Notes under the pieces: model-generated
What the model was told of the DNA's origin: nothing
Database searches by the model: none
What the model saw: only the letters and a program-made list of their open reading frames with translations
In this document: positions 2,650 to 32,000 of the stretch, piece by piece
How positions within the stretch are numbered: position 1 is the first letter of the stretch
Layout of the letters: the number at the start of each line of letters is the position of its first letter
Assembly: GCF_000009965.1 (NCBI RefSeq)
Contig: NC_006624.1
Coordinates: 600,001-632,000, forward strand
Direction of reading: 5' to 3'
Length of the DNA: 32,000 nucleotides
From: Thermococcus kodakarensis KOD1
Lineage (GTDB): Archaea; Methanobacteriota_B; Thermococci; Thermococcales; Thermococcaceae
Made by a program: the position numbers and the translations under genes

Positions 2650-3981
2650 TCACTTCGTCGCCCTCGTTATGCCCACATCCTTGACGAGCACGTAGGGCGT
2701 CGATACTGGCGTGTTTACCTCCCACCAGTGGATGTGGTAGAGCTCTTTTCCGAGGGCTACGATGTTTTCGAGGATCCTCTGGAGGTTATCGCTTACGCGA
2801 ATGTTCCTTATCGGCTTCAGCTCGCCGTTCTCAACGAGAAAGATGCCGTCTCTCGGGATCGTTGAGAAGTCGCCAGCAACGTAGTTCTGGAAGCGCGTGT
2901 ACCAGACGTTGGTGATGTAGATGCCCTTCTTCACCTCGCTGAAGAGCTCCTCTTTTGAGTAGTCTCCAGGTTCGAGGACGATGTTCCAGGCGTGCGGCAT
3001 CACCAGGCCGGCGTTGGCGGTTGTTTCAGTCCCGTACTTCCTGGCGAGGCTCGTGTTGAGGAGGAACGTCCTGAAGGTTCCGTTCTCGATTATGGTCGTT
3101 TCCCTCGTTGGAACACCCTCGTCGTCGAACTTCCTCGTGCCGTAGCCGTTGGGCAGGTTCCCGATGTCCTTGATGGTTACTCCGTCAGCGGCGACCTTCT
3201 GCCCGAGCTTGTTGACGAGGAAGGAAAAGCCAGCTTCGGCGGCATAGGCGGAGGTCATGAAGCTCATGTAGCTGAGCAGGTTGGCGAAGGCCAGCGGGTC
3301 GAATATGACGTCGAACTTCCCTTCCGGCCCCTGCTCCGGGTTTCTGGCCAACCTTGCTATCTCTCCCGCCTTCCTTCCGGCGCTCTCGGGGTCGAACTTC
3401 TTGAGCACCCTCACGGAGTTCGTCCCGTGGCCGCTCTCGAGGTCGCCTATGAAGGCCCTGACGCTTATTTCTATCCCCGTTCCCTCGTCGAAAGCTTCCA
3501 CTCCGTTGCTCGTGGTCAGGTAGAGCTTGTTGTGGTCTGTGTAGAGGACTCCAGCAACTCTCTTCGCCCCTTCCTCAAGGGCCGCGTTTATTGCCCTCTC
3601 AACGTACTCGTTCGGTTCATCGAGCTCGACTATCGCCCTGTCAAAGGTCTCTGGAATATCCTTGTACTCGAAGGGCCCCTCGGCTATGCCGTAGTAGTCC
3701 TCCTTTGGAGACATGCCCCTTATGTTTGAAAGGAGCGTTTTCAGAATCCTCTCTATGTTCTCATTGCTCAGGTCGGTTATGGTAGTGCTCGCTACCCTCT
3801 TCTCCTTTTCGACGAAGAGCTCGATCTTCCTCTCGTGCCAGTTCTTCGCGACGGTTATCTCATTGTTGGCAAAGCGAACCTGTCTCCTGTTGGTCTCGTA
3901 GCTCAGGACAACGACGTCGCCGAAGCCGAGCTCCTTCGCCCTCTTAAGGATGAACTCGTTAACGTCGAACATCTTCACCAC
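2650..3981 (-). CDS. pmbA: TldE/PmbA-family protein (partner of TldD)
   Basis: 443-aa ORF that is paralogous in architecture to the adjacent TldD. I saw no HExxxH motif. Its start lies 1 nt after the tldD stop. Confidence 0.8.
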   Translation of the reverse strand: MVKMFDVNEFILKRAKELGFGDVVVLSYETNRRQVRFANNEITVAKNWHERKIELFVEKEKRVASTTITDLSNENIERILKTLLSNIRGMSPKEDYYGIAEGPFEYKDIPETFDRAIVELDEPNEYVERAINAALEEGAKRVAGVLYTDHNKLYLTTSNGVEAFDEGTGIEISVRAFIGDLESGHGTNSVRVLKKFDPESAGRKAGEIARLARNPEQGPEGKFDVIFDPLAFANLLSYMSFMTSAYAAEAGFSFLVNKLGQKVAADGVTIKDIGNLPNGYGTRKFDDEGVPTRETTIIENGTFRTFLLNTSLARKYGTETTANAGLVMPHAWNIVLEPGDYSKEELFSEVKKGIYITNVWYTRFQNYVAGDFSTIPRDGIFLVENGELKPIRNIRVSDNLQRILENIVALGKELYHIHWWEVNTPVSTPYVLVKDVGITRATK

Positions 3982-3982
3982 C

Positions 3983-5404
3983 TCACGGCCTCCTCAACGG
4001 AATATCCCGCAGTCTCGCGTGCGCTCCGCCCATCCAGACGGGAACTCCCTGTCCGGGCTCGCCCTTGCCGCAGGTTCCCGGGTAGAACTCAACTTCCTTT
4101 CCTACGGCGTCAACGCTGCTCCACAGTGCCCTCGTCGTTATCTCAAGGATGGGTCTCCTGACCGGGTGCTTTATCTCACCGTTCTCGATGAGGTAGGCCT
4201 CCCTTCCGATGTACCTCTGCTGGTAGCGCCTGTCGTCTATGTTCCACTCGTTGAAGCTCACCATGTAAACACCGAGCTTGATGTCTTCAATCAGCTCCTC
4301 GAAGGAGTGATCGCCCGGAGCCAGGTAGGTGTTCGCCATCCTAACTATCGGCTCGCGGTTGTAGTTGATCGCCCTGGCTGAGGCGTTTGAGCGCTGGCCG
4401 AGCTTGTAGGCGTACTCCCTGTTGGTGAGGAACTCGTTTATGATTCCGTTCCTTATGAGGTACCTCGGGCGGGCCTTAACGCCCTCGTCGTCGTAGAGGT
4501 AGAATCCCCAGCTGTTCGGGATAGTTGGGTCTTCTATGACTGTAACGACGTCGCTGCCGATTCTCTCCCCGAGCATGTCTGGTTTAACGAAGCTCTCCCC
4601 CGCCTGCGCCGCTTCCCTTCCGAAAATCCTATCTGCTTCGTAGGGATGTCCAACGCTCTCGTGGACTGCTATGCCAGCCACCTCGGGGCTTATCACGAGG
4701 TCAACCTTCCCCTCGGGCGGCTTCTGTCCCTCGTAAATGAGCCTCTTAAGGGCCATTACGTCCTTAACGGCCCACTTCCAGGGTTCGTCCTTCTCTAAGA
4801 GCTCAAGACCGCCGGAGAAAGCCCTCTGAACGAAGGGCGCCTGCTCCATCTGGCCGTTCTCAAAGACCACGAGGTTGTAGGTGAGAGACACTCTCGGGAT
4901 GTAGCTCTCAACGAAACCACCGTCGCTGTGGGCTATTATCTTGTGCCACATCCAGTCGGAGTAGCGAAGGAAGCGCATCGGCACGTTCACACCCGTTCCC
5001 TTTACCTCCTCCTCGACCTTCTTGAGGAGTTCAAGCTTCTCCTCCGGCGGTATGTCCCGGAAGTCCTTCCTCATCTTGACTTCGTAATAGACCTCGTGGA
5101 AGTCCTCCTCGGAGAAGCGTATAGGTTCGTTCCTCACCTTCGAGGCGGCTTTTGCCAGCTTCACGGCCTTTTTCACGGCCTCTGCAACGCTCTCCTTCGT
5201 CAGGACGTTGGTTGATGCAAAGCCCATGCCGCCGTCAACGAGAACCCTTATCCCTATGCCCCTGTCCGCGAGAATCCCGAGGCCCTCCGCGTTACCGTTC
5301 TTCATTACTAGCTCAGTACCATTCTTTTCTTCAAAACGCGCTTCGGCGTAGTCCGCCCCCAGTTCGAGGGCCTTTTCAACGGCGAACTCTACAAGTTCAT
5401 GCAT
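3983..5404 (-). CDS. tldD: TldD-family metalloprotease
   Basis: The ORF spans 3983-5413. It carries the HExxxH motif in VHESVGHPYEADR. The likely start is the ATG at 5404 (MHELVEF), after GGGGTGA; alternative in-frame starts are at 5410 and 5413. Confidence 0.85.
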   Translation of the reverse strand: MHELVEFAVEKALELGADYAEARFEEKNGTELVMKNGNAEGLGILADRGIGIRVLVDGGMGFASTNVLTKESVAEAVKKAVKLAKAASKVRNEPIRFSEEDFHEVYYEVKMRKDFRDIPPEEKLELLKKVEEEVKGTGVNVPMRFLRYSDWMWHKIIAHSDGGFVESYIPRVSLTYNLVVFENGQMEQAPFVQRAFSGGLELLEKDEPWKWAVKDVMALKRLIYEGQKPPEGKVDLVISPEVAGIAVHESVGHPYEADRIFGREAAQAGESFVKPDMLGERIGSDVVTVIEDPTIPNSWGFYLYDDEGVKARPRYLIRNGIINEFLTNREYAYKLGQRSNASARAINYNREPIVRMANTYLAPGDHSFEELIEDIKLGVYMVSFNEWNIDDRRYQQRYIGREAYLIENGEIKHPVRRPILEITTRALWSSVDAVGKEVEFYPGTCGKGEPGQGVPVWMGGAHARLRDIPLRRP

Positions 5405-5862: not shown

Positions 5863-6753
5863 TCAGCCGAGGATTTCCCTCTTTATAACCTCGGCAATCT
5901 CAACTATGGCCTTTGAAGCCTTGGCCTCTGGGAAGGCCTCGACAACGGGCTTCAGCATGCTCATGCTCTCTGGAACGGCTCTGTCGTAGGGTATTCTTCC
6001 CAGTATCGGTATTCCTTCTTTCTCAGCCCACTCCTCAAGGCCAGTGAAGCCGGGGTTGATGTCGGCTTTGTTGATGATGAGGTAGGCCGGCTCCCTGAAG
6101 TGCTGGACGACCTTGTAGGCCCTCTGAACGTCGCTGAGCGAAGCCGGGGTAGGCTCTGCTATGAGTATGGCAACGTCTGCCCCACCGAGGCTCGCTATCA
6201 CCTGACAGCCTATTCCAGCGGCCGAATCAACTATCATGTGCTCGAGGTTGAGCTCCTTCATCAGCTTCGCGGCCCACTCCTTCTCCTCCGTGACGAGCTT
6301 TCCGCTCTCGGGCCTTCCGACGTCGAGCTGGGCCGAGATGAGCGGGAAGCCGTACTTGGTTGTCGCCTTCCTGATTACCCCTGAGCGGACTTCCTCAAGG
6401 GTTATGGTTCCGGCCACCGGGCAGACCAGGCCACAGACGTTGCAGCCCTCGCAGGTGAGCTCGTTCACGACGTAGTTGCCTTCGTCATCGATGTAGATGC
6501 ACCCGTAGGGACAGCGCTCGTAGCAGATTCCGCACCTTACGCAGCTCTCTGTGTTTATCCTGGCTATCTTGGCACCTATATGCTCCCTCTCCTCTTCCCA
6601 CTCGGTCACGCCGAGGAGCAAACCAAGGTTCGGGGCCTCAGCGTCGGCGTCAACTGCCACAAACGAGTAATCGTCCTTCAGAAGGTAGAGGAGCGAGGCC
6701 GTTATCGTGCTCTTTCCAACGCCGCCCTTACCGCTCGCTATCGCCACCTGCAT
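5863..6753 (-). CDS. MinD/ParA-superfamily P-loop ATPase with inserted 2x[4Fe-4S] ferredoxin domain (COG1149-type), copy 2
   Basis: It has a deviant Walker A SGKGGVGKST and the cluster motifs CVRCGICYERCP and CEGCNVCGLVCP. The ATG at 6753 follows GGAGGTGG, and the start overlaps the stop of copy 1 (GTGATG). Confidence 0.85.
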   Translation of the reverse strand: MQVAIASGKGGVGKSTITASLLYLLKDDYSFVAVDADAEAPNLGLLLGVTEWEEEREHIGAKIARINTESCVRCGICYERCPYGCIYIDDEGNYVVNELTCEGCNVCGLVCPVAGTITLEEVRSGVIRKATTKYGFPLISAQLDVGRPESGKLVTEEKEWAAKLMKELNLEHMIVDSAAGIGCQVIASLGGADVAILIAEPTPASLSDVQRAYKVVQHFREPAYLIINKADINPGFTGLEEWAEKEGIPILGRIPYDRAVPESMSMLKPVVEAFPEAKASKAIVEIAEVIKREILG

Positions 6754-7625
6754 CACGCACCACCTCCAAGGAACTCGGCAACCCTTTCGGCGAGGCCTTT
6801 GAATATCTCTGCCTCGGGATAGTCCGTCAGGGCTATGGGTTTTCCCTCGACGTAACTTTTGACTATGTTCTCGCTGTAGGGGATCTCAGCCACGATTTCG
6901 GCGCCGTACTTCTCCGCCAGCTCCCTGACCTTACCAACGTCTCCGAGGTCAGACCTGTTCACCACAACCCAAGTCGGGATCTTCATCAGCTTCCCGAGCT
7001 GTAGGATAAGCTCCGTGTCGTGTATGCCGAGGGGAGTGGGTTCTGTTACCGCTATGAGGAGCTTTGAGCCTTCGACTGCTTTTGAGACCGTGTTTCCAGT
7101 TCCAGCGGCCGTGTCCACCATGAGGAGACCTTCCCTGACCTCTTCGGCCCTCTTCTTCGCCGCAACCACGAGCGGCATTGACCTCTCCTCTCCCTCCCTG
7201 AGCTTCCCCGTGACGAGCGTGAAGCCGTAGGGTGTTGGGGTAACGTACGTGTGGCCTATAACTCTGAAGGCCTCTTGAATGGCCCCTGGTACAGGACAGA
7301 CTATCTCACAGGCCCTGCAGCCGGAACAGAGGGTCGGCATGAGAAAGGGCGTCCCGTCCTTCAGCGTCACTATCGCGTGCTCCTCACACACCTCGGCGCA
7401 CTTCCTGCACTTGGTGCACTTCGAGTAGTCGAAGCGCGGCATGAACTGGTTCACGGGTTCTTCGTTGGCAAGCTCAACTCCCAGAAGTATGTGGTCGTTC
7501 GGTGCCTCGACGTCAAGATCCGCCAGAGTCAGCCTGACCCCAATCTTCCTGAGCGCCACCGCGAGGTTTGTCGCGACCGTTGATTTTCCGGTTCCGCCTT
7601 TTCCACCGCTCACCGCTATCTGCAA
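6753..7625 (-). CDS. MinD/ParA-superfamily P-loop ATPase with inserted 2x[4Fe-4S] ferredoxin domain (COG1149-type), copy 1
   Basis: It has Walker A SGGKGGTGKST and the cluster motifs CTKCRKCAEVCE and CSGCRACEIVCP. The ORF runs to 7685, but a TATA-like element and GGAGGTGA lie inside that extension. A TTG at 7625 gives MQIAVSGGKGG, which parallels the paralog's MQVAIASGKGG. Confidence 0.8.
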   Translation of the reverse strand: MQIAVSGGKGGTGKSTVATNLAVALRKIGVRLTLADLDVEAPNDHILLGVELANEEPVNQFMPRFDYSKCTKCRKCAEVCEEHAIVTLKDGTPFLMPTLCSGCRACEIVCPVPGAIQEAFRVIGHTYVTPTPYGFTLVTGKLREGEERSMPLVVAAKKRAEEVREGLLMVDTAAGTGNTVSKAVEGSKLLIAVTEPTPLGIHDTELILQLGKLMKIPTWVVVNRSDLGDVGKVRELAEKYGAEIVAEIPYSENIVKSYVEGKPIALTDYPEAEIFKGLAERVAEFLGGGA

Positions 7626-7642
7626 GCTCTCACCTCCGGAAA

Positions 7643-7684
7643 TTAGGGTAGCCGAATTGGTTATAAGCTTTGTGCATACGCTCA
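7643..7684 (-). promoter_or_regulatory. Internal promoter module: TGAGCGTATGCACA operator-like element, GCTTATAAC TATA box and TTCGGCTACCCTAA iron-box-like element
   Basis: Read on the minus strand it is TAATGAGCGTATGCACAAAGCTTATAACCAATTCGGCTACCCTAATTTCCGGAGGTGAGAGCTTG. The first 28 nt match the module at 31831 in 25 of 28 positions by my manual alignment. Confidence 0.6.
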
Positions 7685-8632
7685 TTACTCCCTGCTCTTC
7701 AGCCTCCTCATGTAGAACCTCTTCCCGTTGTACTCAAGCTCTATCAACTTCCCCTCTTTCAGGAGCTTCTCAACAATGCTCCAGTCTGCGTTTGCCTTCT
7801 CCAGAAACTCCGCAACGGCGTCCTCGCGCATTGGATGGACTGAGGTTATGCTCAGCAGATCCTCCTCAACGTTACCCGTAAAGGCGAAGGCGTTCCCCTC
7901 GTAGCCGATCAGGTATTCCACGCGCTCGTCCCCAAGGATTTCGCTGAAGACCTGATATGCGTGGTTGATGACATCTTCCTTCGCAGGTTTCACCCACGGT
8001 TCCGCCGGCGGTCTCGTTGGAACGGCTATGTAGGCTTTATCCGGTTTCAGCTCCCTCAGAAATTCCGCTATCTTCTCGAACTCGTTGCCATAGTCTATCC
8101 CGTCTATCAGCATCGTCTCGGTGACTATCTTTCCCTTGAACTCCTTCCTGAACTCCAGCATGCCCTCAAGGATCTTCTCAAGGCTCAGGCTCTTGTGGGG
8201 CCTGTCAATTCTCCTCCAGAGCGGCTCACTGACAGCATCAACTTTCAGCGAGACGAAGTCAAACTTCAGAAGGTCTTCCCTGACATCTTCTCTCCAGATG
8301 AGCGAGGAGTTAGTGAGGATAGCCGGGGGGATTTCAAGGGATTTCAAAAGCTCCGCCTCCTTCCCGAGGTTTATGTCGAGCGTGGGCTCTCCATCTGGAA
8401 CGAAGGTGATGTAGTCTATCCTCTCGCTCCTCGCGAGTGCCTCCTCGACTTTCTCCTTGACTTCTCTGAAGATCAGTTCGGGCTCGTAGAAGGGCCTCCT
8501 CTTGATTTCCATTCTGAGAGTTTTCCCTATCTGACAGTAAACGCAGGCGTAGGTGCATACCTTGTCGGGGATGTTGTTCACGCCGAGGCTCCTGCCGAGC
8601 CTCCTCGAGGGGACAGGTCCAAAGGCTATCAT
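7685..8632 (-). CDS. Radical SAM protein (NifB/MoaA-related Fe-S oxidoreductase type)
   Basis: The CxxxCxxC motif occurs in CTYACVYCQIG near the N-terminus. The 315-aa ORF has GGTGGTGGT upstream of its ATG. Confidence 0.8.
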   Translation of the reverse strand: MIAFGPVPSRRLGRSLGVNNIPDKVCTYACVYCQIGKTLRMEIKRRPFYEPELIFREVKEKVEEALARSERIDYITFVPDGEPTLDINLGKEAELLKSLEIPPAILTNSSLIWREDVREDLLKFDFVSLKVDAVSEPLWRRIDRPHKSLSLEKILEGMLEFRKEFKGKIVTETMLIDGIDYGNEFEKIAEFLRELKPDKAYIAVPTRPPAEPWVKPAKEDVINHAYQVFSEILGDERVEYLIGYEGNAFAFTGNVEEDLLSITSVHPMREDAVAEFLEKANADWSIVEKLLKEGKLIELEYNGKRFYMRRLKSRE

Positions 8633-8645
8633 ACCACCACCGGAG

Positions 8646-8659
8646 TTAGGTTAGCCTAA
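8646..8659. promoter_or_regulatory. DtxR/IdeR-type iron-box-like element TTAGGTTAGCCTAA between TATA box (8662-8671) and the radical-SAM start
   Basis: The minus-strand reading is ATTTATACGCCTTTAGGCTAACCTAACTCCGGTGGTGGTATG. The 14-mer equals the first 14 nt of the corynebacterial/mycobacterial 19-bp iron-box consensus TTAGGTTAGCCTAACCTAA. Confidence 0.6.
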
Positions 8660-8726
8660 AGGCGTATAAATCTTGTGAAGAACAAAAGCAATAAACGGGA
8701 AGCACGAACAAAGGGCGGGATGGTCT

Positions 8727-20370: not shown

Positions 20371-20384
20371 TTAGGTATCCCTAA
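20371..20384. promoter_or_regulatory. Iron-box-like element TTAGGTATCCCTAA in the feoA 5' region
   Basis: It follows the TTAGG-N4-CCTAA pattern. It lies between the feo TATA box (plus-strand CTTAAATAAC, 20415-20424, read on the minus strand) and the feoA start at 20335. Confidence 0.55.
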
Positions 20385-20389
20385 CAACT

Positions 20390-20408
20390 TCAGAGTAGGC
20401 TAACCTAA
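20390..20408. promoter_or_regulatory. Iron-box-like element (minus-strand TTAGGTTAGCCTACTCTGA)
   Basis: By my count it matches the 19-bp DtxR/IdeR consensus in 16 of 19 positions. It lies immediately downstream of the feo TATA box. Confidence 0.6.
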
Positions 20409-20468: not shown

Positions 20469-20487
20469 TTAGGTTAGCCTAATCTAA
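20469..20487. promoter_or_regulatory. Near-consensus DtxR/IdeR iron box TTAGGTTAGCCTAATCTAA
   Basis: It matches TTAGGTTAGCCTAACCTAA in 18 of 19 positions. It sits in the feo/mod divergent intergenic region. Confidence 0.7.
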
Positions 20488-20609: not shown

Positions 20610-20623
20610 CGTGCATATGCACG
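20610..20623. promoter_or_regulatory. Perfect 14-bp palindrome CGTGCATATGCACG, followed by GCTTAAAAGC (TATA-like)
   Basis: It has the same GTGCATATGCAC core as 25229-25242 and is related to 31834-31847 and 7671-7684. It lies about 150 nt upstream of the modA start. Confidence 0.5.
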
Positions 20624-20709
20624 AATTAGGGCTTAAAAGCTTTTTCTTGTATCTTCTCTATTTTCAACTCCAAAACTCTGAGGCCTTGGTAAACACTTCC
20701 ACTTACTAT

Positions 20710-23820: not shown

Positions 23821-24360
23821 TCATCGAGCTCTGATTTCAAGGAACTCAACGAGGAGGTTAAAGAACCGCGTGGTTCTCCCCAAGGGAGTTATAAAGCGGT
23901 AGACCAGCAGTTCCTCCCGGATTTCTTCTCTCTGGAACTCCTTTGGTAGGCCATCAAACTTTCCGCTTCTTGAGAGCTCTTTTACAACCCTCCAGCCATC
24001 GGAAAAGAGCGCGTTGAAGTACTCCTTCAGCCACTTCTCGTCGATTCTCCTTACGAAGAGCTCCCCCTCCCTTGACAAGCGGTAGTAGGTGTGGTGCTTG
24101 TGGACTTCGAAGGCCTTCTTGAACCTCGCCTTACTTCTCTTTATCGCACTTCCAGAGTCTCGCTCCACCAGTCCAGCTTCCATCAGATCTCTTATTGCAT
24201 CTTCGATGAGAGAAAGGGGTAGCTCGCTCATTTTCACCATCATCTTGGCGTAATCCACTCCGGCTTTCTTAAGGTGGGCCAGGACGTAGAGGTGAACCGG
24301 AAGGAGTTCAAGGCCTCGGTACGAACCTGGGCGTTCTTTCTGCGTATTCCCTCCATCCAT
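23821..24360 (-). CDS. Winged-helix DNA-binding protein (DUF2250-like) with C-terminal extension
   Basis: The sequence HLYVLAHLKKAGVDYAKMMVKMSELPLSLIEDAIRDLMEAGLVERDSGSAIKR...EVHKHHTYYRLSREGE looks like a wHTH. The start is uncertain because there is a 53-nt overlap with the upstream gene. Confidence 0.55.
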   Translation of the reverse strand: MDGGNTQKERPGSYRGLELLPVHLYVLAHLKKAGVDYAKMMVKMSELPLSLIEDAIRDLMEAGLVERDSGSAIKRSKARFKKAFEVHKHHTYYRLSREGELFVRRIDEKWLKEYFNALFSDGWRVVKELSRSGKFDGLPKEFQREEIREELLVYRFITPLGRTTRFFNLLVEFLEIRAR

Positions 24361-24745
24361 CGCCGAACATCTCCTCGAGGGCTTTCTCCTCCTCGCCTAT
24401 GAACCCGAGCACGCCCGCCCAGTAAACGAGAGGAAGTAAGAGCATGAAGCCACCGAAGAGGAGAGAGAATCCCGGAATCACGAGAAAGCCCCAGATGGAG
24501 TATATCGGATGCCTCACCCTTGAGTAGCAGCCCTCCGTGAGCAGTTTCCCCTTCGAGTAAGCCCTTGAGACCTGAAGGTAGCAGAGAAACCAGAGGGAGA
24601 GGCCGAGGAATACCATCAGGAACCCAAGGACTGGAAACGCGAGAAAGCTAACCCCAAGCCTCTCGTCTAGGTAAAACGCCAGAACCGCATAGATGGAAGA
24701 AAGGAGGGCAACCTTTGGAAAGATGCCCCAGAACTTCATGTTCAC
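24308..24745 (-). CDS. Membrane methyltransferase of the ICMT/PEMT-like family
   Basis: It has four hydrophobic helices. The segments SRVRHPIYS and EEKALEEMFGDGWREYAERTPRFVP fit the isoprenylcysteine carboxyl methyltransferase-like pattern. A GTG start overlaps the upstream stop (GTGA); an alternative ATG lies two codons in. Confidence 0.65.
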   Translation of the reverse strand: MNMKFWGIFPKVALLSSIYAVLAFYLDERLGVSFLAFPVLGFLMVFLGLSLWFLCYLQVSRAYSKGKLLTEGCYSRVRHPIYSIWGFLVIPGFSLLFGGFMLLLPLVYWAGVLGFIGEEEKALEEMFGDGWREYAERTPRFVPRP

Positions 24746-25161
24746 TCCTCTATCGGCGGTTTTTCGGTCTTCTTTTTCTGCACCTGCTCCCAGAGGTCGT
24801 CGAAGTTCTCCACGACCCGCTGGAGTGCAAGGTTTAGATCCCTCGTCCTCGTGAAGAATGCCACCTTGTTGGTCTTGTCCCGGATTCTCAGGAAGTTCGG
24901 GCCCATCCTGAAAGCTGCTAAAACGTCAACGTCGAGGAGCTGGCTGACGACTGCCTTGAACTTCCTCGGGTCGCCGTGCCCCTCGTCGTGTTCTTCCTCT
25001 ATGTCTTTAGCCTTGTTGTGCCTCTTTTCGAGGAGTTTTATGCTTCCATCCTCGCAGATTTCGTAGATCGCGAAGAACTCTGAATCACCGTAGTGTGCAT
25101 CTATGAGGTGTTCATCATCTTCCATTCCGAACGCGACTTTGAGGCATCTCTTCTCAGCCAT
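24742..25161 (-). CDS. NifX/NifB-C-terminal-like (dinitrogenase FeMo-cofactor-binding fold) protein, paralog 1
   Basis: The sequence LKVAFGMEDDEHLIDAHYGDSEFFAIYEI...VDVLAAFRMGPN fits the family pattern. The ORF extends to 25212, but a TATA box (CTTATAAAAC) and AGGTGA lie inside it. The start is the ATG at 25161 (or 25167). Confidence 0.6.
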   Translation of the reverse strand: MAEKRCLKVAFGMEDDEHLIDAHYGDSEFFAIYEICEDGSIKLLEKRHNKAKDIEEEHDEGHGDPRKFKAVVSQLLDVDVLAAFRMGPNFLRIRDKTNKVAFFTRTRDLNLALQRVVENFDDLWEQVQKKKTEKPPIEE

Positions 25162-25202
25162 GAGCATCACCTGAAATTCCTTCGGTAGGGGTTTTATAAG
25201 GA

Positions 25203-25216
25203 TTAGGCTCACCGAA
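25203..25216. promoter_or_regulatory. Iron-box-like element TTAGGCTCACCGAA in the divergent NifX-like promoter region
   Basis: It follows the TTAGG-N4-CC(T/G)AA pattern. The minus-strand reading TTCGGTGAGCCTAA resembles 7643-7656 (TTCGGCTACCCTAA). Confidence 0.45.
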
Positions 25217-25228
25217 AACTTTAAATGC

Positions 25229-25242
25229 TGTGCATATGCACA
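25229..25242. promoter_or_regulatory. Perfect 14-bp palindrome TGTGCATATGCACA between divergent NifX-like genes
   Basis: It is flanked by TTTAAAT (25220-25226). It is 33 nt upstream of the ATG at 25275 and 68 nt upstream of the ATG at 25161 on the other strand. Confidence 0.6.
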
Positions 25243-25274
25243 AAATAATAGACGAAAGAATGGAGGTGGTTGGC

Positions 25275-25898
25275 ATGAGGATCGCTGTCCCGACTAACGG
25301 TGGAGGTAGAGAAGACACGGTCGCCCCGGTCTTCGCGAGGGCACCGGCATTTTACATAGCGGACGTTGACGAGAACGGGAACATCGTCAGCGAGAAGGTC
25401 ATTCAGAACAGCGCCGCAATGGCCGGCGGAGGGGCCGGACCAATGGCAGTCCAGACCCTCATCAACGAGGGCGTTGAGGCAATAATAGCTCCTCAGGTCG
25501 GCCCGAACGCACTCGGTGCCATACAGGCCGCTGGTATCAGGCTCTACCAGGTCGCTCCAGGGACACCAGTGGAGGAGGCCATAAAGAGCGTCGTGAGCGG
25601 TGAAGCGGCCCAGTTCACGGCACCCGCTCCGCAGGCTCCCGTCGCTCCAGCGGCCCCTGCAACTCCGGTAGCACCGGTGCCGCCAGCGTACGGCCCAGCC
25701 TACCCGGCTTATCCTGCCTACGGCTACGGTTTCGGCCCTGGTTGGGGCAGAGGCTGGGGCCGCGGATGGGGTAGAGGACGCGGCTTCGGCAGAGGTTGGG
25801 GCAGAGGAGGAAGAGGCTGGGGAGCGAGGCTCGGCTACTGCCCGTGGACAGGAATGCCCAGCAGGAGAACCCTCCGCCGGTATTACGGCTGGTGGTGA
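25275..25898 (+). CDS. NifX/NifB-C-terminal-like domain fused to a Pro/Ala linker and a GW/RG-repeat tail
   Basis: The ATG at 25275 follows GGAGGTGG. The N-domain reads MRIAVPTNGGG...VAPVFARAPAFYIADVDENG...EAIIAPQVGPNALGAIQAAGIRLYQ. The tail reads APAPQAPVAPAAPATPVAPVPPAYGPAYPAYPAYGYGFGPGWGRGWGRGWGRGRGFGRGWGRGGRGWG...LGYCPWTG...RRYYGWW. Confidence 0.8.
   Translation: MRIAVPTNGGGREDTVAPVFARAPAFYIADVDENGNIVSEKVIQNSAAMAGGGAGPMAVQTLINEGVEAIIAPQVGPNALGAIQAAGIRLYQVAPGTPVEEAIKSVVSGEAAQFTAPAPQAPVAPAAPATPVAPVPPAYGPAYPAYPAYGYGFGPGWGRGWGRGWGRGRGFGRGWGRGGRGWGARLGYCPWTGMPSRRTLRRYYGWW
25740..25823 (+). repeat. Coding micro-repeat (GGN-TGG-GGN-MGN units) specifying GWGRGWGRGWGRGRGFGRGWGRGGRGWG
   Basis: Read directly: GGTTGGGGCAGAGGCTGGGGCCGCGGATGGGGTAGAGGACGCGGCTTCGGCAGAGGTTGGGGCAGAGGAGGAAGAGGCTGGGGA. 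Confidence 0.85.
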
Positions 25899-25931: not shown

Positions 25932-26177
25932 ATGCCGCGCGGTTACGGAAGGGGTATGGGCAGGGGTGGAAGATTCGGCCCGTATCCACCCTATTATGGA
26001 GGCTTCTTCGGCCGTTTTGGACTCTACGGAATAATAGACCTAATCTTCCTGCTCCTGATCCTCTACCTGCTCTTCAAGCTCTTCCTAGTGGCTGCGACCT
26101 ATGTTATAGCCCTCGTGGTGCTCTACATGCTCTGGGGCTTCATAAGTCCGAGGAGAGGCCGCTGGTTCTGGCCTTAG
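25932..26177 (+). CDS. Small membrane protein with MPRG-type RG/aromatic-rich N-terminus (DUF5320-like flavour) and two TM helices
   Basis: The ATG at 25932 follows GAGGTG. The sequence is MPRGYGRGMGRGGRFGPYPPYYGGFFGRF, then the hydrophobic IIDLIFLLLILYLLFKLFLVAATYVIALVVLYMLWGF, then the tail RRGRWFWP. Confidence 0.6.
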   Translation: MPRGYGRGMGRGGRFGPYPPYYGGFFGRFGLYGIIDLIFLLLILYLLFKLFLVAATYVIALVVLYMLWGFISPRRGRWFWP

Positions 26178-31031: not shown

Positions 31032-31768
31032 GCTCCCACCTCCTCGAATATCCTGGCAAACCCTTCGCGGTCTATCTGGTCAACGAGCTCGCCGGAGCCG
31101 GTCTTGACGATCCTGCCGTCCTTCATGACGTGAACCGTGAGCTTCTCCCTGTCGAGGTGGCCGAGGATTCTGCCGTAGTGTGTGATGAGGAGTATCGCCG
31201 TCCCGCGCTGGTGGAGCTCCTCTATCTTCCTGCTGATTATGCTGAGGGAATCCACATCAACGCCACTGTCCGGCTCATCCAAAATGAGAAGCTTCGGCTC
31301 GATGAGAAGTGCCTGAAGTAGCTCAAGCCTCTTCCTCTCACCACCGGAGAAGCCAACGTTCACGTAGCGGTGAAGGTCTTCCTCCTTGAACCAGAGCTCC
31401 TTGGCCTTTTCAACTACGAGATCGTAGGCCTCAGCGGGGTCCATTCCCTTCAGCTCCACGAGCACCTGCTGGAGGAACTCTATGACCTTAACTCCTTCGA
31501 CCTCGGGTGGAACCTGAAACGCGAGCAGAATCCCCCTCTTCGCCCTCTCGTCGGGACCGAGTTCGGTGATGTCTTCCCCCTCGAAGAGGATTTTTCCATC
31601 GGTAACTCTGTACTTGGGATGACCCGCTATCGTCAGGGCCAGCGTTGACTTTCCTGAGCCGTTCGGCCCCATGATTACATGAAACTCACCCGGGTTAACT
31701 TCAAGATCTACGCCCCTTAGAATCTCCTTGTCCTCAACTGAGACGTGAAGGTTCTCAACTTTGAGCAT
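31028..31768 (-). CDS. sufC: Fe-S cluster assembly ATPase SufC
   Basis: Walker A GPNGSGKSTL, signature FSGGERKRLELLQ, Walker B LILDEPDSGVD and H-loop ITHY. The ATG at 31768 (MLKVENLHV) follows GGAGGTGA. The ORF-track start at 31846 includes the promoter. Confidence 0.9.
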   Translation of the reverse strand: MLKVENLHVSVEDKEILRGVDLEVNPGEFHVIMGPNGSGKSTLALTIAGHPKYRVTDGKILFEGEDITELGPDERAKRGILLAFQVPPEVEGVKVIEFLQQVLVELKGMDPAEAYDLVVEKAKELWFKEEDLHRYVNVGFSGGERKRLELLQALLIEPKLLILDEPDSGVDVDSLSIISRKIEELHQRGTAILLITHYGRILGHLDREKLTVHVMKDGRIVKTGSGELVDQIDREGFARIFEEVGA

Positions 31769-31833
31769 TCGCTCACCTCCGTGGGTAACGTTGATGGGAC
31801 GTTTTTTAAGCATTTTGGAACAGACTTGTGTAA

Positions 31834-31872
31834 TGAGCATATGCACAAGGCTTTTAACTTAGGCTTTCCTAA
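31834..31872 (+). promoter_or_regulatory. Promoter module: TGAGCATATGCACA operator-like element, GCTTTTAAC TATA box and TTAGGCTTTCCTAA iron-box-like element (31859-31872)
   Basis: The sequence is TAATGAGCATATGCACAAGGCTTTTAACTTAGGCTTTCCTAACTCCGATGGAGGTGAAGGACATG. It is a twin of the 7643-7684 module. Its box and downstream part also resemble the radical-SAM promoter (TTAGGCTAACCTAACTCCGGTGGTGGT). Confidence 0.6.
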
Positions 31873-31892
31873 CTCCGATGGAGGTGAAGGAC

Positions 31893-32000
31893 ATGAGGAT
31901 AATCGTATCAACCGTTACCGGAGGGCTCGACGACAGGGTGAACCCGGCCTTTGGAAGAACGCCGACGTTCACGATCGTGGACGTTGAGAACGGAGAGATA
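31893..32000 (+). CDS. NifX/NifB-C-terminal-like protein, paralog 3 (5' part only; runs off window)
   Basis: The ATG at 31893 follows GGAGGTGA. My own translation is MRIIVSTVTGGLDDRVNPAFGRTPTFTIVDVENGEI, which parallels the 25275 protein. This ORF is not in the supplied track because it is open-ended. Confidence 0.7.
   Translation, partial: MRIIVSTVTGGLDDRVNPAFGRTPTFTIVDVENGEI

Follow-up and report, generated by a model that had tools for sequence, protein, structure and literature searches.

In a 32,000-nt stretch of the Thermococcus kodakarensis KOD1 chromosome (hereafter, the window; window position x corresponds to position x + 600000 of NC_006624.1, as anchored by gene coordinates that Jaeger et al. 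2014 give in their supplement), we identified the segment 31829-31895 as the core promoter of TK0732, an IssA-family gene. A single TATA box in this promoter is flanked by two 14-bp elements, here denoted box A and box B, and one and the same physical unit, consisting of box A, a TATA box and TTCGG-N4-CCTAA, is read out through box B at TK0732 and at the ATPase gene TK0702, or through box A at issA (TK0724). We consider it probable, at roughly 70%, that the A-TATA-B arrangement is the working promoter of TK0732 and a two-input cassette, which would receive iron via DtxR and elemental sulfur (S0) or sulfide via a box A factor, and in which the polarity of the unit would set the sign of the iron response.

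Anatomy and conservation of the TK0732 promoter

The primary transcription start site (TSS) of TK0732 is position 631881, that is, window position 31881 on the plus strand, in the published differential RNA sequencing (dRNA-seq) of KOD1 (Jaeger et al. 2014, Table S2, TTS0631881_+), the source of all TSSs used here. In the same work, TATA boxes were located ~23 bp and B recognition elements (BREs) ~33 bp upstream of TSSs, and from this geometry and the TSS at 31881 it follows that GCTTTTAAC is the TATA box of TK0732. An earlier note on this DNA had described the segment as a promoter module of a NifX-like gene and a twin of the module at 7621-7689; the published TSS bears this out, the downstream open reading frame (ORF) indeed encodes a Nitro_FeMo-Co (NifX-domain) protein, and all quoted strings were recovered in place (31834-31847, 31850-31858, 31859-31872, 31880-31887, the ATG at 31893 and, on the minus strand, GCTTAAAAAA at 31803-31812). 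The TK0732 leader is 12 nt long, with the Shine-Dalgarno (SD) sequence inside it, and both boxes are upstream of the TSS and hence untranscribed. Because the palindromes are untranscribed and Rfam gave no match anywhere in the window, an RNA-level element (hairpin, riboswitch or terminator) is excluded. The BRE position upstream of the TATA box reads CACAAG in KOD1 and GCAAAC in most orthologues; the same letters form the 3' half of box A, so that the two are inseparable by sequence.

Relatives of TK0732 were collected from metagenomes by protein similarity, independently of the motifs, and 26 distinct orthologue promoters (68-94% identity), namely those of KOD1, locus L007 and 24 metagenome contigs, were aligned. 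The alignment contains a conserved block, TGAGCnTATGCAAA-cTTTTTTAAG-TTCGG-N4-CCTAA, with high information content over box A, the TATA box and both half-sites of box B, and low information content in the N4 spacer, after box B and upstream of box A. Free variation was found in the N4 spacer, in the 7 nt that separate box B from the SD sequence and everywhere upstream of box A. Judged from these alignments, boxes A and B are under purifying selection, and conservation of both elements in orthologous promoters, a test that had been set beforehand, was found for the NifX-like gene. The match of 23 in 27 positions between the box-to-start segment and the radical-SAM promoter, to which the earlier note had drawn attention, is numerically exact, but its 7 nt between box B and the SD sequence vary in orthologues, and that part of the match is mostly ribosome-binding site.

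At issA, the order of the boxes is swapped relative to TK0732 (B-TATA-A). The divergent gene TK0723 has a TATA box of its own and its minus-strand TSS at 25172. The map of Thermococcales-type loci places A with B before TK0732 orthologues, A-TATA-B before the MinD-Fer4 genes of the TK0702 type, B-TATA-A before TK0724 orthologues, and B alone at the radical-SAM/methyltransferase intergenic region and at feoA. Both promoter classes are present in the complete genomes of Pyrococcus furiosus (issA = PF2025), Palaeococcus pacificus, T. barophilus and P. horikoshii, and the inverted unit at issA/sipA was found in Thermococcus, Pyrococcus and Palaeococcus. The issA box A is exactly TGTGCATATGCACA in 20 of 20 metagenome-contig promoters and in L007, down to ~58% protein identity; this 14-mer is likewise unchanged in P. 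furiosus and T. barophilus, and the sole variant is TGTGCATATGCTCA in Pa. pacificus. Furthermore, a TK0725-like short ORF in P. horikoshii (L157, ~4650-4765) has its own TATA-plus-box-A promoter and seems to belong to the box A regulon as well. At L115 (~3925-3990) and L116 (~1395-1460), distant NifX-like genes (53-56% identity) show a third arrangement, with CTTATGCRAAC followed by TTAGG-N4-CCTAA and then a TATA box; CTTATGCRAAC is possibly half of box A, and the motifs may extend beyond Thermococcales.

Within the window, 14 sites match box A with at most three mismatches (1.1 expected) and seven match TTAGG-N4-CCTAA with at most one (0.74 expected). Three A-B pairs lie 20-34 nt apart (7671/7643, 25229/25203 and 31834/31859), compared with none in 300 dinucleotide-preserving shuffles.

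Co-occurrence of A and B at three promoters per genome, always flanking one TATA box, might suggest one composite operator, bound by a single regulator or a fixed heteromeric complex. We regard this as improbable and treat A and B as two sites, because the distance between A and B varies from 23 to 32 nt and either box can stand without the other, box A at P. horikoshii 4752 and, as an A-like site, at window position 20610, and box B at feoAB and the radical-SAM gene; moreover, the two motifs are unrelated palindromes. Both boxes can also be separated from the core promoter, given that a TK0732-like gene with 89% identity at L099 (~3090-3200) has lost them (TGATGCTTTCACA and CTCGCCATCCAACG) but keeps the TATA box and the SD sequence. 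The issA and radical-SAM promoters on the L099 contig retain their boxes, and the locus is best read, from these sequences, as a promoter-specific loss of regulation.

The promoter unit and the divergent sufC gene

In KOD1, sufC (TK0731) and TK0732 are divergent, with a spacer of 124 bp, and boxes A and B lie ~55-90 bp upstream of the predicted sufC start. The earlier note had accordingly proposed one bidirectional site that is shared by the two genes and coordinates iron-sulfur (Fe-S) assembly with the NifX-like gene, and sufBD and issA are indeed both S0-induced in P. furiosus (PMC5524996). The comparative evidence makes such a shared site very unlikely. A sufC-based genome scan returned mostly bacterial sufC, and among the 17 usable archaeal loci a NifX-like gene divergent from sufC was found only in L007. 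The adjacency is limited to KOD1 and its closest relatives, L007 and L091 being arranged like KOD1 and L084 carrying a remnant of sufC. Neither box was found upstream of sufC in nine other Thermococcus-type loci (L004-L006, L008-L012 and the more distant L013), in which sufC has a different neighbor gene and a different conserved element is kept beside its TATA box. This element, present in KOD1 upstream of sufC and outside the A-TATA-B module, has the form GCATTnCTGGACA-N4/5-TGTGAA in other Thermococcus species, is recognizable in DHVE2 contigs, and probably binds a suf regulator of its own. It holds a CACA-N2-TGTG-like inverted repeat, and a remnant of the element persists in L092, where sufC is absent.

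Conversely, most TK0732 orthologues carry A-TATA-B with no sufC nearby, and are usually located ~0.9 kb downstream of issA, in tandem. In the KOD1 clade, TK0725-0731 appear interposed between issA and TK0732. At L084 (2645-3251), only the first ~46 codons of sufC, with a frame break, and a methyltransferase fragment separate TK0725 from TK0732; despite the reduction of sufC, its promoter region and the A-TATA-B module have both stayed intact, an arrangement that, as far as the contig can tell, is evidence of a recent rearrangement of the suf insertion. The response to S0 in the dRNA-seq data was 1.3-fold for sufC vs 2.9-fold for TK0732 (single libraries, adjusted p = 1). The published dRNA-seq table lists a TSS for neither sufC nor TK0702. 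Thus, the A-TATA-B unit serves TK0732 and not sufC, on which it could have an incidental effect in KOD1; coordination of suf and the NifX-like gene through a common operator is not supported, and the analysis corrects that idea. A weak A-like palindrome over the SD sequence and start codon of sufC (TGAGCGAATGCTCA, 31762-31775; TGAGCTAATGCTCA in other species) was also considered, but its conservation is explained by the SD sequence, the ATG and the coding sequence, and it is probably coincidental.

Proposed iron and sulfur inputs to the two boxes

TK0724 is the orthologue of P. furiosus IssA/SipA (PF2025, 179 aa), with 61% identity over the full length, and its match in Pa. pacificus is PAP_06520, the published SipA homologue. 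IssA is a NifX-domain protein with a cationic Gly-rich tail that is upregulated by sulfide only with sufficient iron (PMC5524996). The N-terminal domain of TK0732, in the window fragment as in the full gene, is IPR003731/Nitro_FeMo-Co (Pfam PF02579), and its Gly/Met/Arg-rich tail, GMGPGMGRGMGGMGRGMGRGRGGGMGGGRGGGWGW, agrees with the cationic Gly-rich tail described for IssA (PMC5524996). TK0732 was not orthologous to PF2025, being ~42-47% identical to the TK0724-type domain; by family likeness, it is an IssA-family paralogue with a predicted storage-type function. In KOD1, 20 min after S0 addition, the dRNA-seq values rose 30-fold for TK0724 (nominal p 0.04, adjusted p 1), 5.8-fold for TK0725, 4.5-fold for TK0703 and 3.5-fold for TK0701. 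TK0725 (25932-26177; also L156, 3595-3813) is a small membrane protein encoded after issA, with an N-terminus rich in Gly, Arg and aromatic residues. TK0724 (25275-25898) is among the T. kodakarensis chromosome-associated proteins in chromatin mass spectrometry (PMC7325993); the very cationic tail of the protein, rather than any function in connection with DNA, may account for this.

The bacterial DtxR/IdeR operator consensus is the 19-bp sequence TTAGGTTAGCCTAACCTAA (PMC7762939). Upstream of feoAB, we found matches to it of 18/19 at 20469-20487 and 16/19 at 20390-20408, with 0 expected for either; in total, box B occurs in three copies at these iron-acquisition genes in KOD1 and is conserved there in L113. 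TK0107, encoded outside the window, is named in two papers as a DtxR homologue thought to control iron acquisition, and Fur of T. kodakarensis is reported to be cryptic. On account of the consensus matches at feoAB, the DtxR homology of TK0107 and the cryptic state of Fur, we assign box B to the DtxR-family operators: it is predicted to be a DtxR/IdeR-type iron box and the putative operator of TK0107, with a 14-bp palindrome as its conserved unit. At TK0732, box B has perfect TTAGG/CCTAA half-sites, and its best 19-bp register (31854-31872) overlaps the TATA box. DtxR-type boxes in archaea and position-dependent regulation are already established, and some box B sites may already be catalogued in work on archaeal DtxR regulons (Leyn and Rodionov 2015).

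The half-sites of box B resemble those of the bacterial DtxR/IdeR iron boxes (TTAGG...CCTAA), and the regulon here likewise spans iron uptake (feoAB) and iron(-sulfur) storage (issA). Bacterial IdeR exerts dual control, repressing uptake genes and activating storage genes, and the location of box B, which follows the core promoter at uptake genes but precedes it at the storage gene, parallels this division. In contrast to the bacterial case, however, the unit here is a 14-bp TTMGG-N4-CCTAA in an archaeal promoter that uses TATA-binding protein (TBP) and transcription factor B (TFB), the product is IssA/thioferrate rather than ferritin, and a second operator is paired with the first. MDR1 of Archaeoglobus fulgidus, a metal-dependent repressor of the DtxR family, keeps RNA polymerase from being recruited by binding operators at the TATA box or downstream of it, and we propose that box B at -22 to -9 works likewise. 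Unlike box B, MDR1 controls its own ABC-transporter operon via tandem sites, and to our knowledge neither a partner operator nor a polarity switch has been described for it. SurR and TrmBL1 activate from an operator upstream of BRE/TATA and repress from one downstream, and we used this position rule to read the swapped A and B slots. These two proteins differ from the present case in being single-factor switches, not two operators around one TATA box, and in their motifs, GTTn3AAC and TATCAC-N5-GTGATA, neither of which is present here.

Box A is a 14-bp palindrome of the family consensus T-G/T-W-GCATATGC-W-M-A, with the core GCATATGC, and takes the forms TGTGCATATGCACA, TTTGCATATGCAAA and TGAGCnTATGCAAA. 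It marks a narrower regulon than box B, comprising issA, TK0732, MinD-Fer4 and TK0725-like genes. In the box A of the TK0732 orthologue at L092 (3942-3955), TGAGTGTATACACA, the palindromic partners 5 and 10 are both altered, from C to T and from G to A, which retains the symmetry at these positions, and position 6 has changed without its partner; matching half-site changes are expected of the site of a dimeric factor, although this is a single case.

As these genes respond to S0, a condition governed by SurR, box A could be the site of a characterized Thermococcales regulator (SurR, TrmB/TrmBL1, Phr or Fur), an explanation to which we give little credence. The SurR motif GTTn3AAC (extended, GTTn3AACn5GTT) was not found in the TK0731/0732, TK0723/0724, TK0702 and TK0703/0704 upstream regions, which rules out box A as a SurR site, and Fur, as noted, is reported to be cryptic in KOD1. 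Box A is also not known to resemble the TGM, Phr or Fur consensus sequences. A literature search with the box A string yielded only unrelated eukaryotic and primer matches and none in an archaeal context. No cis-element or regulator for issA was found in the literature searched, which deals with its physiology, and the locus tags of these genes were not found in the supplement of PMC12827226. Within that literature, box A itself, its constant pairing with box B around a single TATA box and the inversion of polarity between issA and its paralogue appear to be undescribed, although part of this may already be published, for example by Leyn and Rodionov (2015) or Zhu et al. (2013).

A candidate for the box A factor is encoded next to issA. 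TK0721 is co-transcribed with the NifX-like TK0723, which adjoins issA, and its linkage to the TK0723 operon is kept in five other loci; in P. horikoshii, its homologue lies beside a radical-SAM-MinD-MinD cluster and the box-A-preceded TK0725-like ORF. Homologues of TK0721 (DUF2250) are described in one source as predicted transcriptional regulators, and some of them match Pfam MarR_2. Nearly all of the top 50 PDB structure matches of the confident AlphaFold 2 model of TK0721 (predicted local distance difference test score, 86) are MarR-family regulators, and the matches are weak (E ~3e-3; template modeling score 0.4-0.5); a PDB sequence search with TK0721 returned nothing significant. We therefore name TK0721, modeled as a MarR-like winged-helix protein, only as a doubtful candidate for the factor. 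The conserved 246-aa ORF that is divergent from issA in several species was rejected as a regulator, since its sequence, on reading, suggests a DUF364-type protein and not a DNA binder.

Under the two-input scheme, DtxR-Fe2+ bound at box B between the TATA box and the TSS would block recruitment of RNA polymerase, so that TK0732, TK0702, TK0703 and feoAB would be off when iron is plentiful; at issA, where box B lies upstream of BRE/TATA, the bound protein would allow TFB and TBP to be recruited or would help to recruit them. A second, dimeric factor at box A would repress until a signal dependent on S0 or sulfide removes it, blocking via the BRE in promoters of the TK0732 type or via the gap between TATA and TSS in those of the issA type. 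The issA gene would thereby acquire a 'sulfide AND iron' logic, and TK0732 and the ATPases would be favored when free iron falls, including after sulfide production. Such a combination of iron and sulfide inputs would account for the published induction of issA by sulfide only when iron is sufficient. With the TTCGG half of box B (CCGAA on the issA strand, followed by AA) and GCAAA of box A, a BRE-like sequence of each box would face the TATA box, and we speculate that these faces may let one cassette fire in either direction. More tentatively, and with odds clearly against it in this full form, box A might be the operator of a new Thermococcales sulfide/Fe-S regulator, possibly TK0721, forming with DtxR a reusable cassette whose firing direction sets the iron response on (issA) or off (TK0732, MinD-Fer4).

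Several observations weigh against this scheme. Both boxes are operators predicted from sequence alone. The TK0732 box B matches the 19-bp bacterial consensus at only 15/19, most TK0732 orthologues have TTCGG rather than TTAGG in its TATA-proximal half, and, according to one paper, the TK0107 orthologue had yet to be shown to bind target promoters. An activating role for DtxR at issA is deduced solely from position; should DtxR repress from the upstream slot too, issA would owe its iron dependence to something else, for instance, a box A factor that senses Fe-S species. TK0721 has no cysteines, no box A precedes the gene of its P. horikoshii homologue, and around the Archaeoglobus homologue we found neither box A nor, in that contig, the linkage. 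The S0 expression values come from single libraries, with adjusted p = 1 for all these genes. Finally, promoters of the TK0732 type have their BRE in the 3' part of box A, so that a core-promoter constraint could account for some of the conservation of the box there.

Taken to its end, this last point, together with the paralogy of TK0723, TK0724 and TK0732, would make the three promoters mere duplication relics of gene plus promoter, or a strong BRE/TATA core with no dedicated regulators, but this is hardly credible given that the boxes stay constant down to ~58% protein identity and across three genera as spacers and flanks drift, that the issA box A lies downstream of the TATA box, where a BRE is not expected, that A and B occur at non-homologous genes (MinD-Fer4, radical SAM, feoA and the TK0725-like ORF), and that the boxes decayed at L099 and the TATA box stayed.

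Neighboring features and implications

The promoter elements and genes of the window are compiled in Table 1. Between the divergent TK0703 and TK0704, one TATA box (8664-8671) appears to serve both genes: its rightward use matches the mapped TSS of TK0704 at 8693, and leftward use would place the start of TK0703 ~9 nt before the ATG, with box B immediately downstream, a TSS that is not recorded for this barely expressed gene. Upstream of feoAB, a minus-strand TATA box, GCTTTTAAG (20632-20640), is closely followed by an A-like palindrome, CGTGCATATGCACG (20610-20623). Exactly at 20610 on the minus strand lies a published primary TSS, which was attributed to feoA at a distance of 275 nt; transcription from it may yield either an orphan transcript or feoAB mRNA with a long leader across three DtxR boxes. 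TK0717, encoding a ModA/WtpA-type transporter, was rejected as a target, its mapped TSS (20762) having no box nearby.

Table 1. Promoter elements and genes of the window, with positions in window coordinates
Feature	Sequence	Position	Strand	Remarks
TK0732 box A, near-palindrome	TGAGCATATGCACA	31834..31847		-47..-34 from TK0732 TSS; 3' end overlaps expected BRE
TK0732 TATA box	GCTTTTAAC	31850..31858	+	-31..-23; high information content in alignment
TK0732 box B, TTAGG-N4-CCTAA palindrome	TTAGGCTTTCCTAA	31859..31872		-22..-9 from TK0732 TSS, between TATA and TSS
TK0732 Shine-Dalgarno	GGAGGTGA	31880..31887	+	Invariant in orthologues
TK0732 start codon	ATG	31893-31895	+	
TK0732, 5' part		31893..32000	+	Full protein 154 aa
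sufC TATA box	GCTTAAAAAA	31803-31812	-	Outside the A-TATA-B module
sufC conserved upstream element, KOD1 form	TTTGGAACAGACTTGTGTAA	31811-31833	-	Outside the A-TATA-B module
Box B, issA (TK0724)/TK0723 divergent region		25203..25216		-47..-34 from TK0724 TSS; -44..-31 from TK0723 TSS
issA (TK0724) TATA box	CTTTAAAT	25221..25228	+	TSS at 25250
issA box A, perfect palindrome	TGTGCATATGCACA	25229..25242		-21..-8 from TK0724 TSS
TK0702 (MinD-Fer4 ATPase) box A	TGAGCGTATGCACA	7671..7684	-	
TK0702 TATA-like element	GCTTATAAC	7660..7668	-	Architecture kept in P. furiosus, P. horikoshii, L084 and L112
TK0702 box B	TTCGGCTACCCTAA	7643..7656	-	
Box B alone, radical-SAM TK0703/methyltransferase TK0704 intergenic region		8646..8659		-47..-34 from TK0704 TSS (8693)
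Proximal feoAB (TK0716-0714) promoter, two box B copies		20371..20408	-	Kept in L113
Distal feoAB box B	TTAGGTTAGCCTAATCTAA	20469..20487		
TK0701, TK0702				MinD/ParA ATPases with 4Fe-4S inserts (Pfam)
TK0703				Radical SAM (Pfam)
TK0704				Methyltransferase (Pfam)
TK0714-0716				feoB/feoA (Pfam)
TK0717-0719				ModA-type ABC transporter (Pfam)
TK0721		23821..24360	-	DUF2250; last gene of TK0723-0722-0721 operon
TK0723, TK0724, TK0732				NifX-domain (Nitro_FeMo-Co) proteins (Pfam)
TK0730, TK0731				sufBD, sufC (Pfam); sufC on minus strand, its protein found on CP116885.1

The orange-protein (ORP) genes of Desulfovibrio depend on a sigma54 activator. The window holds an ORP-like set, with two ATPases and a radical-SAM protein at 5863-8632 and NifX-domain proteins at 24742-25898 and from 31893 onward; as in the Desulfovibrio set with MrpORP (PMC6345978), MinD/Mrp-type ATPases with 4Fe-4S inserts and small NifX-domain proteins form a set of co-regulated gene families. 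The Desulfovibrio system differs in being bacterial, in its sigma54 activator and in having no DtxR box. The NCBIfam MrpORP model gave weak matches to TK0702, TK0724 and TK0732, far below the family cut-off, and we claim no membership for them.

In Pyrococcus, sulfur induces no gene more strongly than IssA/SipA. Among the closest known cases to the module described here is P. furiosus issA, the orthologue of TK0724 and a paralogue of TK0732, the promoter of which carries B-TATA-A; the published work on issA that was searched, unlike the present analysis, concerns physiology. With the module come two 14-bp targets, each mapped relative to the TSS, and a named candidate factor, so that the control of issA by sulfide and iron can be tested directly in the genetically tractable T. 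kodakarensis.

To conclude, next to a broader iron regulon, the two boxes delineate a conserved one that comprises issA and its paralogue TK0732, the genes of the MinD-Fer4 ATPases and that of a small membrane protein rich in Gly and Arg, and they present a compact natural case of combinatorial control, in which two operators bracket one archaeal TATA box and are used in both polarities. If the proposed scheme is true, the cassette would be the missing cis/trans basis for the induction of issA by sulfide only when iron is sufficient, and would show how the sign of a response can be inverted when promoter polarity is flipped around a single TATA box.

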